Positions 35,612 through 42,132 of a stretch of 64,000 bases of DNA are shown here, in pieces; position 1 is the stretch's first letter; each line of letters opens with the position of its first letter. This DNA is from Gammaproteobacteria bacterium (GTDB taxonomy: Bacteria > Pseudomonadota > Gammaproteobacteria > GCA-001735895). The position numbers were made by a program, and so were the translations under genes. A model generated the notes under the pieces. It was not told the DNA's origin. It searched no databases and was given only the letters and a program-made list of their open reading frames with translations. Where the stretch lies: assembly GCA_014382695.1 (NCBI GenBank), contig JACNJF010000194.1, positions 861 to 64,860 of the forward strand, in the 5' to 3' direction.

Positions 35612-36166
35612 TTAGAGTGTAGTGTTTCCTGCGGGCCCGATATTCATTCCTATCGACAGTCGATAGTGCTCGGATCTGTTTTCAGTGACACGATGGGGAG
35701 TCGCGGGGTCAAAAAAGATGAAATTCCCGCTAACTGGTTTGATGACGATGCTCTGTTCTGGTGTTTCGAGTACCAGGTCACCCGAATTTTCAGGCACCGA
35801 CAGATAGATAACCCCGGAAATTAATTCGTCAAAATCATCATGTCGATGCAGTGTTGTGACATGCCCGGGTTGCATCAGGTTGAACCAGTAGCCGATCTTT
35901 AACTCATCTGTGCACATGCCAAGTAGTTCTGCACAGTAGCCCAGGCTTTCTTCGAGTAGCCTTTCTAAATCGGTATTTTGAATGGTTTTCAGATAGATAT
36001 TTTCAAACCGTTGATGAAAATAATGGGTCTTTTTGAGGTTATTAGCATTCTGCTCCAGCTGTTGCTGCAGGTAGCGATCGATAGCACTAAGCTGGGAGGC
36101 GCTTAACTGGCTGATTCGCCGGATATAGGGGGTTTGGCTAAATAATCTCGGTGTGACGAGTGACAC
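35612..36166 (-). CDS. putative 2OG-Fe(II) oxygenase superfamily protein
   Basis: A His/Asp pair in HRHDDFDE and a distal His in ATPHRV, consistent with the double-stranded beta-helix facial triad. Confidence 0.55.
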   Translation of the reverse strand: MSLVTPRLFSQTPYIRRISQLSASQLSAIDRYLQQQLEQNANNLKKTHYFHQRFENIYLKTIQNTDLERLLEESLGYCAELLGMCTDELKIGYWFNLMQPGHVTTLHRHDDFDELISGVIYLSVPENSGDLVLETPEQSIVIKPVSGNFIFFDPATPHRVTENRSEHYRLSIGMNIGPAGNTTL

Positions 36167-36431: not shown

Positions 36432-36656
36432 AACATTCTCCTCAAATTCAGACGATAAAAAAAGATTATTTGGCGCTGTAGCGCACTCGTAAGAATTGCC
36501 ACAGGCCGAAAAATGTGAGTATTTTACTAGAAAAAACGCAGTTTATAATATCTCTATTGGGAGTATGCGTGGATTTACGTCCCATCAGGGATATTCGAAT
36601 AATAATGAATAATGATTATTATTATCAACAGTTTATTTATCAGGAGTATATATTTG

Positions 36657-37082
36657 ATGACTACCGATGCTGATATGAATTTTATTAGTGGTATGTCGGC
36701 CTTTGAATCTAAAGAGTTCATCCGCGCCGTACAGTTTTTACTACCCTTTGCCGAAAAAGGTGACCCGGATGCCCAGCACCGTGTTGCTATCATGTACCAA
36801 AATGGTCTGGGCATGGTGAAAAAGGAAGCACTGGCTTTCAAGTGGATGAAAGCGGCCGCTGACCAGGGCCATGCGGTTGCACAGCATGGACTCGGGTTTA
36901 TGTATATGGATGGCGATTGTGTTGAAAAGGATGGCGCCAAAGCGGTTGAATGGTTTAGCAAGGCTGCCGATCAGGGGCTGGTCGGCTCGATGACGACACT
37001 TGCCATGATGTATGAATCTGGTGATGGGATTGAGAAAGACCCAGAGAAAGCAAAAGAACTTTACGCGAAGGCGGGGTTTTAA
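36657..37082 (+). CDS. Sel1-repeat (TPR-like) protein
   Basis: Three Sel1-like repeats (AQHRVAIMYQNGLG, AQHGLGFMYMDGD, LAMMYESGDG). SD CAGGAG lies upstream of the 36657 ATG. The track start at 36612 lies inside an AT-rich repeat. The stop overlaps the next start (TAATG). Confidence 0.75.
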   Translation: MTTDADMNFISGMSAFESKEFIRAVQFLLPFAEKGDPDAQHRVAIMYQNGLGMVKKEALAFKWMKAAADQGHAVAQHGLGFMYMDGDCVEKDGAKAVEWFSKAADQGLVGSMTTLAMMYESGDGIEKDPEKAKELYAKAGF

Positions 37083-38125
37083 TGCGTCCTGCGTTTTTGT
37101 CCAAAGTTCTGGAAGAAGAACTACTGGGAACGCTTAAAGGTCATCACACACCGGTGATGGTATGGGGCCCGCCAGGGGTTGGCAAATCACAGATCGTGCT
37201 GCAGATTGGGCAAACCCATAAGCTGCCGGTGATCGATATCCGGCTATCTCAGATGGAACCGAGCGATTTGCGCGGTATCCCGTTTAAACAGGGCAGTAAG
37301 GTTGAATGGGCGGTACCTTCGATGTTGCCCGATGCTAAAACCCATGGCAGTTCAGGCATTCTGTTTCTGGATGAAATAAATTCGGCAGCCCCTTCGGTGT
37401 CAGCAGCGGCCTATCAGCTTATCCTGGATCGCCGACTGGGGAACTATGAAGTACCGCAGGGCTGGGCCATCTTTGCTGCCGGCAACCGACAGGGCGATCG
37501 TGGAGTGACCTATGCGATGCCTGCACCACTGGCGAATCGCTTCTCACATTATGAAATCGATCTGCATCTGGATGACTGGGTGGCCTGGGCCTATAAAAAC
37601 GGTATCGATGAACGCATCATCGGTTTTTTACGTTTTCGCCCGGAGTTACTGTTTGATTTTGATCCGGCGCACAACCCGGTCGCTTTTCCATCACCGCGTT
37701 CCTGGGAGTTTGCTCATCGCGCATTACAAAAATTTATCGATTACCCGAATCTGTTGCTGGGTTCGTTACAGGCCTGTGTTGGTCCTGCGGCAGGAATCGA
37801 ATGTCATGCGTTTATTGAAAGTCTGGATCAAATGCCGGATCTGGATAAGATTATCAATGGTGAAGACATCAAGGCACCGGATGAAATCGACCTGCAATAT
37901 GCAGTGGCTTCTGCACTGGTAGGCCGTGCGATTCGTGCTCAGTCGAGCGCGCAGTCGGCGACTATCTATGGCAATATCCTTAACTATGCGGGTCGTTTTC
38001 CGCAGCGTGAAATGGGTGTAATGCTGGTATCGGATATGCATCGGGCGATTGGTAATGATCTGTTTGAACTGACCGAATTTGCCAGCTGGGCCGATTCTAT
38101 TGCCGATCTGATTCTGTACGACTGA
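37082..38125 (+). CDS. MoxR-like AAA+ ATPase (AAA_5 family)
   Basis: Walker A GPPGVGKS and Walker B ILFLDEIN. The sensor and arginine region (AAGNRQGDRG) is typical of the CbbQ/NorQ/MoxR clade. Confidence 0.9.
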   Translation: MRPAFLSKVLEEELLGTLKGHHTPVMVWGPPGVGKSQIVLQIGQTHKLPVIDIRLSQMEPSDLRGIPFKQGSKVEWAVPSMLPDAKTHGSSGILFLDEINSAAPSVSAAAYQLILDRRLGNYEVPQGWAIFAAGNRQGDRGVTYAMPAPLANRFSHYEIDLHLDDWVAWAYKNGIDERIIGFLRFRPELLFDFDPAHNPVAFPSPRSWEFAHRALQKFIDYPNLLLGSLQACVGPAAGIECHAFIESLDQMPDLDKIINGEDIKAPDEIDLQYAVASALVGRAIRAQSSAQSATIYGNILNYAGRFPQREMGVMLVSDMHRAIGNDLFELTEFASWADSIADLILYD

Positions 38126-38134
38126 TGACGGTTC

Positions 38135-39505
38135 GTGGATAGTTCACTCGAAGCAATTGAAAACAAATTGAGTGCAGCGCGCACTCGATTGATCCTGGAT
38201 AAACCATTTTTGGGGGCGCTGGTGTTGCGTCTGCCGTTGCAGGCGGCCGATCCGAGCTGGTGTGCAACCACCGGTACCGATGCCCGAAAGTTCTATTACA
38301 ATCCGGCCTATATTCAGGAGCTGCGCGCCGATGAAACCCAGTTTGTGCTGGCACACGAAGCCCTGCATTGCGCGCTGTCGCATTTTGCACGGCGCGGTCA
38401 TCGGGTTAAACACCGCTGGGATATCGCCTGTGATTATGCGATTAATCCGCTGCTGTTAGATGAAGGGCTGAAGCCGCCACCCGGCTCTCTGATGCTGCGT
38501 GAGTACCGTGGGATGACGGCGGAGGAAATCTATCCGATGATTCAGGATAACGATATGTCCGAGTCGCTGGATCAGCATCTGTACGATAAACAGGAGCAAA
38601 CCGAAGGCGGGCAGGATAAACAGCAAAATCCACTCGATCAGAAGGATTCAAAAAGTCAGTCTGGTGGTGAAGGTCAGGTGCAACGGCAGGATCAGTCGAA
38701 TAAACCTGCACAGGGCAATCAGCCTGACGAACCGGCGGATAGCGAAAAAAATCCGCAGCAGGATGAAAGCGCGGGCCTGCCGAGACAGAGCAACGATCAG
38801 TTACCCGGAAAAGCCAGCGGTGCCGCCAGTAAAGACCTGCAAAGCAGTGCACCGCAGCCGTTAACCGAATCAGAAAAATCAGATCTGCATGTGCAGTGGC
38901 AGCAGCGACTGGCTGGTTCGGCACAACAGGCGCAGCAGGCCGGTAAGCTGGGTGAAGGCATCGCGCGCATGATCGATTTTTTTCTGCAGCCGACCTTACC
39001 CTGGCGTGTATTACTGGCACGCCATATGAACAGTATTTCGCGCGACGATTACAGCTACACGCGGCCTTCCAGCCGGCGTGGCGATCCGGCGATCTATCCC
39101 AGCCTGCGTAGCCCGCAGATGAACGTGGTGGTCGCTGTCGATGTCAGTGGTTCGATCGACAAGGATGAGCTGGATGAGTTTGTGGCGGAAGTCGATTCAC
39201 TCAAATCCCAGGTTCGGGCGCGTGTCACTTTTCTGACCTGTGATTCAAAGATAACCGGTGATAGTCCTCAGATTTTTGAAGCCTGGGAGTATTGCCGCCT
39301 GCCGGAACGTATTATGGGTGGAGGCAGCACCGATTTTAACCCGGTGTTTGAGTGGGTCGAACGGCATGATGTGAAGCCGGATCTGCTGGTTTACTTTACC
39401 GACGCGGATGGACGATTCCCTCGCTGTCAGGCGCCTTATCCGGTGATCTGGCTGGTGAAAGGCCGTAAGGCCGTTCCCTGGGGCCAGAGAATTCAATTAA
39501 ATTAA
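38135..39505 (+). CDS. HExxH putative metallopeptidase domain (DUF2201_N-like) plus Q/E-rich linker plus C-terminal VWA domain protein
   Basis: GTG start. HEALHCALSH motif at the N-terminus, a low-complexity acidic and Gln-rich linker of about 120 aa, and a VWA domain with MIDAS-like VAVDVSGSID. Confidence 0.85.
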   Translation: MDSSLEAIENKLSAARTRLILDKPFLGALVLRLPLQAADPSWCATTGTDARKFYYNPAYIQELRADETQFVLAHEALHCALSHFARRGHRVKHRWDIACDYAINPLLLDEGLKPPPGSLMLREYRGMTAEEIYPMIQDNDMSESLDQHLYDKQEQTEGGQDKQQNPLDQKDSKSQSGGEGQVQRQDQSNKPAQGNQPDEPADSEKNPQQDESAGLPRQSNDQLPGKASGAASKDLQSSAPQPLTESEKSDLHVQWQQRLAGSAQQAQQAGKLGEGIARMIDFFLQPTLPWRVLLARHMNSISRDDYSYTRPSSRRGDPAIYPSLRSPQMNVVVAVDVSGSIDKDELDEFVAEVDSLKSQVRARVTFLTCDSKITGDSPQIFEAWEYCRLPERIMGGGSTDFNPVFEWVERHDVKPDLLVYFTDADGRFPRCQAPYPVIWLVKGRKAVPWGQRIQLN

Positions 39506-40632: not shown

Positions 40633-40731
40633 GCGAAGTTCGTGGAGTGCAACTATCGGTTGCGCGATGTTTTCTATATAATGATTTCCTTATATTAAAT
40701 TTAAGGCCTCCAACTGGAGCGGGTGTATGCG

Positions 40732-42132
40732 ATGAAGTACCTTCCGATATTTTATGAAATCACCGATAAGCCCTGTGTAGTGATCGGAGGCGGGGGGATT
40801 GCCGCACGTAAAGCCGACCTGTTACATCAGGCGGGTGCCAGAGTCAGTGTGATTTCCCCCGAGCTGGGCGATGAAATGTCGCGCTTTCAACAACAGGGTA
40901 AGATTAGCTGGCAGCAACGTAATTTTGAGGCAGGTGATCTGACCGATTATTTTCTGGTGATCGCCGCAACCAGTGACAGGCGGGTCAATGAACAGGCTGC
41001 GGCTGAAGCACTGGTGCTGAAGATTCCCTGTAATGTGGTGGATAACCCAGAGCTATGCAGTTTCATCATGCCTTCGATTATCAACCGGGATCCAGTACAG
41101 ATTGCGGTATCTACCGGTGGCGCATCACCGGTGCTAGCACGTCTGATTCGGACCAATCTGGAAAGCTGTACGCCATCGGCCTATGGCAAGCTGGCGAAGC
41201 TGGTCGAAAAGTATCGTGACCGGGTCAAAAGTACCTTCCCACGCGTGGTCGAGCGTCGTAAATTCTGGGAGTCTATTCTGGAAGGGCCGGTGGCTGAACA
41301 TATCTTTGCCGGTCGTAACGACGATGCCCGACAGTTGATTGAACAACTGATCGACAAGGCCGATTCCAACCCGTCCTATAAAGGTGAAGTGTTTCTGGTA
41401 GGTGCCGGTCCGGGAGACCCCGACCTGCTCACCTTTCGCGCCTTACGCCTGATGCAAAAGGCCGATGTCATCGTCTACGATCGACTGGTTTCGCAACCGA
41501 TCATGGATCTGGTGCGGCGTGACGCGGAGCGCATCTACGCCGGCAAGGAACGCTCCCATCATGCGATACCCCAGGAAAACATCAATCAGTTGCTGGTGCG
41601 GTTGGCCAAAGAAGGCAAACGTGTACTACGCCTGAAAGGTGGCGATAACTTCATTTTCGGACGCGGTGGTGAAGAAATATCTGAATTGATCGATGAAGAT
41701 ATCCCGTTTCAGGTCGTGCCCGGTATAACTGCCGCTTCCGGTTGTACAACCTACGCAGGTATTCCGTTAACCCACCGTGATTATGCGCAGGCCTGTATCT
41801 TTGTGACCGGCCACCTGAAGGATGGCTCCAGTGATCTGAACTGGGATATGTTGTCGCATGCGAATCAAACGGTGGTTTTTTACATGGGGCTGGTGAATGT
41901 TCAGTCGATCTGCGATTCACTCAAACAACATGGCCGAGCCGCCTCTACACCGGCTGCGTTGATCGAAAAAGGTACAACGCCGGAACAACGGGTTTTTATC
42001 GGTGATCTGGATACCTTACCGGGGCTGGTGAACCAGAATAATGTCAAGGCCCCGACCCTGATTGTGGTCGGTGAAGTGGTGGAGTTGCATAAGAAACTGC
42101 ACTGGTTCAAGCCGGGCGAAGAGATTAAATAG
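40732..42132 (+). CDS. cysG: siroheme synthase
   Basis: Three functional regions: precorrin-2 dehydrogenase, sirohydrochlorin ferrochelatase, and uroporphyrinogen-III C-methyltransferase. MKYLPIF...VVIGGGGIAARKADLL matches the E. coli CysG N-terminus, and the SUMT motifs VGAGPGDPDLLT are present. Confidence 0.95.
   Translation: MKYLPIFYEITDKPCVVIGGGGIAARKADLLHQAGARVSVISPELGDEMSRFQQQGKISWQQRNFEAGDLTDYFLVIAATSDRRVNEQAAAEALVLKIPCNVVDNPELCSFIMPSIINRDPVQIAVSTGGASPVLARLIRTNLESCTPSAYGKLAKLVEKYRDRVKSTFPRVVERRKFWESILEGPVAEHIFAGRNDDARQLIEQLIDKADSNPSYKGEVFLVGAGPGDPDLLTFRALRLMQKADVIVYDRLVSQPIMDLVRRDAERIYAGKERSHHAIPQENINQLLVRLAKEGKRVLRLKGGDNFIFGRGGEEISELIDEDIPFQVVPGITAASGCTTYAGIPLTHRDYAQACIFVTGHLKDGSSDLNWDMLSHANQTVVFYMGLVNVQSICDSLKQHGRAASTPAALIEKGTTPEQRVFIGDLDTLPGLVNQNNVKAPTLIVVGEVVELHKKLHWFKPGEEIK

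Follow-up and report, generated by a model that had tools for sequence, protein, structure and literature searches.

Background

The gene analyzed in this study, here named the zincin-VWA gene, is located at positions 38135-39505 of a 64,000-nucleotide stretch of DNA from a Gammaproteobacteria bacterium (assembly GCA_014382695.1, contig JACNJF010000194.1, positions 861 to 64,860; here referred to as the window). Its product, the query of all comparisons below, joins a zincin-like module to a VWA domain and is encoded directly downstream of an AAA+ ATPase. Closely similar pairs have been described in phages. The core genes of N4-like phages include gp24 (AAA+ ATPase) and gp25 (vWFA domain), which are found on middle-gene transcripts (PMC4193335, PMC7650795). 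For jumbo phages of group 2.2 a MoxR-vWA pair with an N-terminal metallopeptidase was noted (PMC7824862). Iyer et al. proposed a role in assembly with proteolytic processing.

Cellular pairs of a MoxR-type ATPase and a VWA protein are known as well. According to two reports (PMC9976466, PMC13036017), the characterized pairs are metal-insertion or remodelling chaperones. NorD is described there as consisting of an N-terminal domain and a VWA domain with a disordered linker between them. [quoted passage not shown] The linker is essential and was proposed to be stretched as the NorQ ring rotates the VWA domain. A finger of this VWA domain goes into the NorQ pore (PMC13036017). Furthermore, MoxR-vWA ternary conflict systems have been described in which the vWA component is sometimes fused to a peptidase, including a rare metallopeptidase (Kaur et al. 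2020, PMC7159879).

Family membership of the zincin-VWA protein

The arrangement found here is already catalogued and represents the standard architecture of a very large and widespread family. PF13203 (DUF2201_N, "putative metallopeptidase domain") matched amino acids (aa) 9-323 with E=2.7e-43 (148.9 bits, gathering threshold 23.2) and was covered from position 3 to 269 of 271, which bears out the DUF2201_N membership assumed in a preliminary description of this DNA. C-terminal to it, PF09967 (DUF2201, "VWA-like domain") matched aa 331-455 (E=1.1e-23, 84.1 bits, gathering threshold 26.4). In PHROGs the protein fell into phrog_1314 (E=1.3e-83). No match was obtained in PADLOC, in NCBIfam or in a sequence search of the PDB. 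New here are another cellular member of the family and the pointer to a conserved four-gene cassette that is specific for its clade.

A word-indexed search yielded 5,274 proteins at E<=1e-5 among 8,000 candidates, and both Pfam domains were present in all 120 proteins among the matches listed. When 1.84 billion cluster representatives (clusters at 50% identity) were searched exhaustively with HMMER, 18,810 of them matched at E<=1e-3, of which 3,171 reached E<=1e-30. The combination of domains is not unusual. With more than 18,000 representatives, 526 phage records and a description in print, it is the defining architecture of the family.

The databases contain an identical protein, listed as hypothetical, from a Gammaproteobacteria metagenome-assembled genome (P0001, 449 aa). 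The deposited annotation begins 7 codons later, at the ATT codon at 38156. Homologues have approximately 7 residues ahead of the sequence IENKL, as does the product of the GTG at 38135, and the GTG start is therefore favoured.

The ATPase partner and the phage homologues

The ATPase gene ends 9 bp before the zincin-VWA gene. Its product scored 36.2 bits with Pfam AAA_5 (cut-off 22), so that the proposed partner of MoxR class was indeed found, as an AAA_5 gene directly upstream. The Walker A motif GPPGVGKS is encoded at 37166-37189, and a Walker B motif, ILFLDE, was read from the sequence at aa 93-98. In PHROGs the ATPase matched phrog_1297 ("ATPase", E=1.2e-92), and its best sequence matches in the PDB were the AAA domains of midasin, and NorQ. 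With bpMoxR it stayed below the threshold (17.9 versus 27 bits).

NorQ/NorD, as well as CbbQ/CbbO and RavA/ViaA, likewise combine an ATPase of the MoxR/AAA_5 clade carrying intact Walker A and B motifs with a VWA partner that has a complete MIDAS. In the query the MIDAS is made up of D336, S338, S340, T399 and D423; the intact DxSxS motif reported before was recovered as DVSGS at 39140-39154. However, the VWA domain of approximately 130 aa is much smaller than the 33 kDa domain of NorD. In the query, the N-terminal domain is a zincin with a conserved Glu, whereas the available portions of the NorD reports describe no peptidase role. Additionally, and unlike in NorQ/NorD, no metalloenzyme client is encoded near the query genes.

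By tblastn the family was detected in 526 phage records, mostly of N4-like podoviruses and jumbo phages, with 22-33% identity. The homologue in Litunavirus P121 is annotated "N4 gp25-like", and the "gp24-like" gene upstream of it is 31% identical to the ATPase (E=4e-38). In the jumbo phage EC.P1 the gene upstream of the homologue shares 29% identity with the ATPase (E=3e-37). Both homologues carry DUF2201_N and DUF2201. Adjacency to the ATPase appears obligatory in a range that reaches from sulfur-oxidising Gammaproteobacteria to N4-like phages and jumbo phages.

The query pair resembles gp25/gp24 of phage N4 and the jumbo-phage pair (PMC7824862) in the Pfam domains and their order, the motif HExxHxxxxH, the MIDAS residues and the ATPase upstream. 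It differs from the phage pairs in being cellular, in sharing only 22-33% identity with them, in an insertion of 88 aa compared with a family median of 33, and in its position within a four-gene cassette. The two other cassette members, a Sel1-repeat protein and an orphan protein here named X372, were neither annotated nor recognised in the P121 and EC.P1 loci, where no homologue search for them was made.

The label "HNH endonuclease" is attached to phrog_1314 and to many phage records (e.g. NC_028799.1, NC_029101.1 and PQ310662.1). We rejected it: the two phage homologues that were scanned, which are recorded as "hypothetical protein" and not themselves labelled HNH, contain only DUF2201_N and DUF2201. 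The label looks like a propagated misannotation.

Conservation of the zincin site and its relation to M48 peptidases

The HExxH module of the preliminary description corresponds to HEALH at aa 74-78 of the translation. Its conservation was analyzed in two alignments, one of 18 close homologues (A1) and one of 136 diverse homologues with 28-80% identity (A2). In A2 the residues of the site were kept as follows: H74 in 131, E75 in 125, H78 in 135, H83 in 132, R86 in 133, D100 in 134 and N104 in 133 of the 136 proteins. The comparison of metal ligands and Glu among homologues, as suggested earlier, thus gave 92-99% retention for each of H74, E75, H78, H83 and D100, and this pattern favours a functional metal site. 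At position 96 there is Asn in 102 of the homologues; Asp occupies it in 21, among them the query. E75 was retained in all close relatives of A1, and the two phage homologues (28-33% identity) kept all seven residues from H74 to N104 named above.

When the A2 profile was compared with the PDB, marginal matches were obtained to the M48 peptidase 3c37 (E=0.013), to the minigluzincin MJ1213 (E=0.02) and to an HtpX homologue. Ten BepA-like M48+TPR proteins from related loci served as the M48 reference profile. With hhalign, aa 35-103 aligned to the M48 strands and active-site helix with 90% probability and E=1.6e-6 for the whole alignment, and the N-terminal lobe alone reached 94.8% (E=5e-8). The query shares homologous strands, the active-site helix and the motif hAHEhxHxxxxHxxR with M48 peptidases (HtpX, BepA, Ste24) and minigluzincins; AHEhxHxxxxHxxR is the extended motif common to the family and M48. 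Judged by these profile alignments, the active-site helix is homologous to that of M48 peptidases.

There are also differences from M48. The protein had no match to Pfam M48 (PF01435) at E<=0.1, its sequence could not be aligned to the ExxAD helix, and it is a soluble protein with a VWA domain fused to it. The next helix of the query, equivalent to the ExxAD helix, contains N/D96 and D100 and no conserved Glu. H83, D100 or residue 96 could be the third zinc ligand. PF10263 (SprT-like/Wss1) stayed below its threshold (14.8 versus 25.6 bits, E=0.026).

Domain anatomy and the disordered insertion

Identity to the query within A1 was 83% for aa 8-151, 26% for aa 152-239, 77% for aa 240-325 and 65% for the VWA domain. 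The conserved N-terminal module described before was confirmed, with a length of about 150 aa rather than about 130 aa. Similarly, the low-complexity stretch is real, with reduced sequence entropy over aa 152-239, but conservation, AlphaFold confidence and entropy delimit it to 88 aa and not to about 120 aa.

An AlphaFold2 model based on A2 had a mean predicted local distance difference test (pLDDT) of 85.3 and a predicted template modelling score (pTM) of 0.76, and confidence was low only at approximately aa 151-240. The modelled N-terminal lobe has a pair of helices and a three-stranded sheet, together with the active-site helix (aa 65-80) that carries H74, E75 and H78 and a second helix (aa 92-109) with W95, D96, A98, D100 and N104. 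After the disordered part, the model continues with three helices that are conserved (aa 245-301) and with a compact domain of alpha/beta type. Within aa 240-325, W255, G270, W290, P311, R314 and P322 were each kept in at least 120 of the 136 homologues.

The preliminary description had proposed a protease tethered to a VWA domain through a linker and had overlooked the conserved segment aa 240-325. Since DUF2201_N spans aa 9-323 and the three conserved helices follow the disordered stretch, the "linker" is an insertion within one Pfam peptidase domain and not a tether between protease and VWA domain. The pTM suggests that the protein is predicted as one compact body with a disordered loop.

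Across A2 the length of the insertion ranged from 0 to 135 aa with a median of 33, so that the 88 aa found here are above the median. G, D, E, Q and S are abundant in the insertions, and where the insertion measured at least 15 aa (101 homologues) it was net acidic in 92. Tandem DNA repeats were looked for under the insertion-coding region and none was found. An antisense open reading frame (ORF) of 192 aa (38442-39020, minus strand), lying wholly inside the linker-coding region, had no family match. It was not accepted as a gene; low-complexity DNA rich in G+C probably gives rise to it as a shadow ORF.

The four-gene cassette and its genomic context

Related loci were recovered with A1. The resulting sample of 80 loci is biased to relatives of 52-80% identity, and all belonged to sulfur-oxidising Gammaproteobacteria, e.g. 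Thiothrix, Leucothrix, Cocleimonas, Thiohalophilus and Chromatiaceae. In 72 of the 80 loci the zincin-VWA gene was immediately preceded by the ATPase gene, the exceptions being mostly cut contigs. A Sel1 gene was present upstream of the ATPase gene in 26 loci. X372 was encoded in 33 loci and, in those, almost always immediately downstream of the zincin-VWA gene. Loci centred on X372 homologues (51-53% identity) showed the recurring order Sel1, AAA, DUF2201, X372, cysG (with Sel1 for example in L085). In the clade of the query, the ATPase/zincin-VWA pair is part of a four-gene cassette of Sel1, ATPase, zincin-VWA and X372 (Table 1).

Table 1. Location of the cassette genes, the parts of the zincin-VWA protein and the neighbouring genes in the window
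Feature	Position	Strand	Basis and remarks
2OG-Fe(II) (2-oxoglutarate/iron) oxygenase-like gene	35612-36166	-	Pfam 2OG-FeII_Oxy_5; TIGR02466 below threshold
Sel1-repeat gene, 156 aa as ORF listed	36612-37082	+	Pfam Sel1, E=3.9e-31; stop overlaps ATPase start
AAA+ ATPase gene, MoxR/midasin-like AAA_5 type, 347 aa	37082-38125	+	Pfam, PHROGs; homologue of N4 gp24
Zincin-VWA gene, 456 aa	38135-39505	+	GTG start; Pfam DUF2201_N and DUF2201, phage N4 gp25 type
N-terminal zincin lobe, aa 1-151	38135-38587	+	pLDDT 88-98 over aa 11-150; hhalign to M48
Motif HEALHCALSH, aa 74-83 (H74, E75, H78, H83)	38354-38383	+	Translation; form HExxHxxxxH, then RR
Disordered Q/S/G/D/K-rich insertion, aa 152-239, 88 aa	38588-38851	+	Translation, conservation, AlphaFold; calculated isoelectric point 4.5
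Conserved helical segment, aa 240-325	38852-39109	+	Three helices, then DDYSYTRPSSRR stretch; within Pfam DUF2201_N
Minimal VWA domain, aa 326-456	39110-39505	+	MIDAS DVSGS at 39140-39154 plus T399, D423
Orphan protein X372, 372 aa	39514-40632	+	Starts 8 bp after the zincin-VWA stop codon
Siroheme synthase gene cysG	40723-42132	+	After the cassette

The true start of the Sel1 gene is probably a later Met. For X372 no family was found in Pfam, NCBIfam, PHROGs or PADLOC, although it has more than 3,700 relatives. Its predicted fold has a small N-terminal domain of alpha/beta type and, behind it, an alpha-solenoid, and X372 is a possible adaptor or client.

Scans for promoters and terminators gave nothing clearly above shuffled expectation. 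A weak promoter-like cluster (36496-36654) and a hairpin (40647-40665) are compatible with a four-gene operon and are likewise not above chance. Nothing points to a mobile element: no tRNA gene was found in the 64-kb window, the neighbours are housekeeping genes and the gene order is conserved.

Several neighbouring genes showed patterns of their own. Nine of the 80 loci and 3 of 3 X372-centred loci have cysG behind the cassette (e.g. L002, L004, L005, L018, L033, L059 and L083-L085), an adjacency that may reflect synteny of the lineage rather than a functional link. Conservation of the divergent 2OG-Fe(II) oxygenase-like gene at its place upstream of the cassette was limited to the five closest relatives (L001-L005). 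Fifteen of the 80 loci carried, in the place of X372 and immediately downstream of the pair, a BepA-like M48+TPR gene with a signal-like N-terminus (L022, L026, L027, L030, L038, L047, L057, L060, L066, L068, L071, L073 and L078-L080). It is located at approximately 7.1-9.9 kb in most of these loci and at 4823-5971 in L071. Where the names are informative, these loci belong to Chromatiales, Chromatiaceae, Thiohalocapsa, Halochromatium, Sedimenticolaceae and Candidatus Thiodiazotropha.

Proposed function and alternative explanations

The preliminary description had suggested ATPase-gated proteolysis or metal insertion, which is an inference. We lean, by a small degree, towards the following explanation taken as a whole. 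The zincin-VWA protein, a DUF2201_N/DUF2201 member, would be cytoplasmic and would serve as VWA co-factor of a dedicated MoxR-class ATPase, and the most likely function of the two would be ATP-driven remodelling of a target coupled to proteolysis. By analogy with NorQ/NorD, the ring of the gp24-type ATPase would hold the VWA domain, and the MIDAS would capture an acidic residue of the client. ATP-driven motion would remodel the client, and the zincin lobe would cleave it or would itself be unmasked by that motion. In the clade of the query, the putatively co-transcribed Sel1 protein and X372 would act as adaptors or as the client.

A number of results weigh against this proposal. E75 is replaced in 10 of the 136 representatives (~7%), which keep H78, H83, D100 and the full MIDAS; their motifs start with HD, HV, HS, HL, HN, RA, NC or QV. 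One of them (P0121, HDALH) is 58% identical to the query. They are apparent pseudo-peptidase lineages, and the loss of E75 implies that proteolysis would be dispensable in some lineages. With local, low-mact and global settings alike, hhalign ended before the ExxAD helix, from which M48 peptidases take their third zinc ligand. The ATPase scored below the threshold of AAA_3, the family of MoxR proper (19.6 versus 27 bits). The finger-in-pore contact is a feature described for NorD and would apply to the present VWA protein by analogy. Furthermore, no functional study of the family was found in the searchable literature with DUF2201, COG3864, PF13203, TM0930 or Schitoviridae VWA. The zincin site is intact here and in most of the family, and proteolysis is not universally required.

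The main alternative, which we consider unlikely, is that the zincin-like lobe is a non-proteolytic domain for binding of metal or client. In that case the pair would be purely a chaperone for remodelling or metal insertion, comparable to NorQ/NorD, CoxD/CoxE or CobS/CobT, and its HExxH site would hold or deliver a metal instead of cleaving. This would agree with the conservation of H78, H83 and D100 (132-135 of 136), which exceeds that of the catalytic E75 (125 of 136), and with the His residues and MIDAS kept by the ten representatives without E75. All characterized MoxR-VWA pairs are chaperones (PMC9976466, PMC13036017), and the cassette adjoins the siroheme synthase gene cysG in some relatives. 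Retention of E75 in 92% of the homologues and in every close relative is, however, hard to explain for mere metal binding, and the whole active-site helix together with the preceding strands is homologous to a true peptidase family. A proteolytic lobe could still be an autonomous module of 130 aa, joined to an equally autonomous VWA domain by a passive flexible tether that sets the reach radius only. The insertion is indeed disordered in the model and its sequence is unconserved. Nevertheless, we judge such a tether very unlikely: the Pfam peptidase domain runs on past the insertion to aa 323, and the helices behind it are about as conserved among close homologues as the N-terminal lobe (77% versus 83%). 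The pTM reached 0.76 although approximately 20% of the chain is disordered. In some homologues, moreover, the insertion measures 0-10 aa, and independent domains that needed a tether could not be reconciled with this.

The cassette might also be cargo of phage origin and not a housekeeping system; it would then be the remnant of a prophage or an anti-phage/conflict module. Both proteins gave strong matches to phage families, the family occurs in 526 phage genomes and the pair belongs to the N4-like core. The G+C content is slightly raised, with 0.54 at 38-40 kb compared with 0.43-0.49 in the four bins of 30-38 kb. MoxR-vWA pairs are moreover the core of described conflict systems (PMC7159879), which resemble the query in having a MoxR-type ATPase and a vWA protein. 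Yet the third components of such systems (VMAP, iSTAND, FtsH, beta-propeller) are absent, bpMoxR is below threshold, and in PADLOC the VWA protein had no match and the ATPase had weak matches of a generic P-loop kind only. The neighbours sdhAB, iscRSU and cysG are housekeeping genes, and no tRNA gene lies in the window. Identity to phage proteins is merely 22-33%, whereas the pair is 54-80% identical and kept in order across many genomes of Thiotrichales and Chromatiales. An origin as phage cargo therefore seems highly improbable to us.

For the acidic insertion we offer a speculation that is decidedly unlikely as it stands. Rather than a passive spacer, it might be an internal ligand of the MIDAS or a pseudosubstrate, so that the M48-like site would open only once the AAA+ ring has twisted the VWA domain and drawn out the insertion. 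The system would then be a true ATP-gated protease, which in sulfur-oxidising Gammaproteobacteria would have been domesticated, jointly with Sel1 as an adaptor and the orphan alpha-solenoid protein, for processing of one specific housekeeping client. This idea was suggested because the insertions are acidic throughout the family despite their unconserved sequence, and because the NorD linker is essential and is proposed to be stretched by NorQ.

Implications

The family is enormous, with more than 18,000 clusters and 526 phage genomes, and includes a core pair of N4-like phages, yet no experiment on it was found. The conserved four-gene cassette could be a source of adaptor or substrate candidates for initial biochemical work. 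If a MoxR-type motor is wired to a protease in this family, its mechanism would be distinct from that of the metal-insertion chaperones studied so far.
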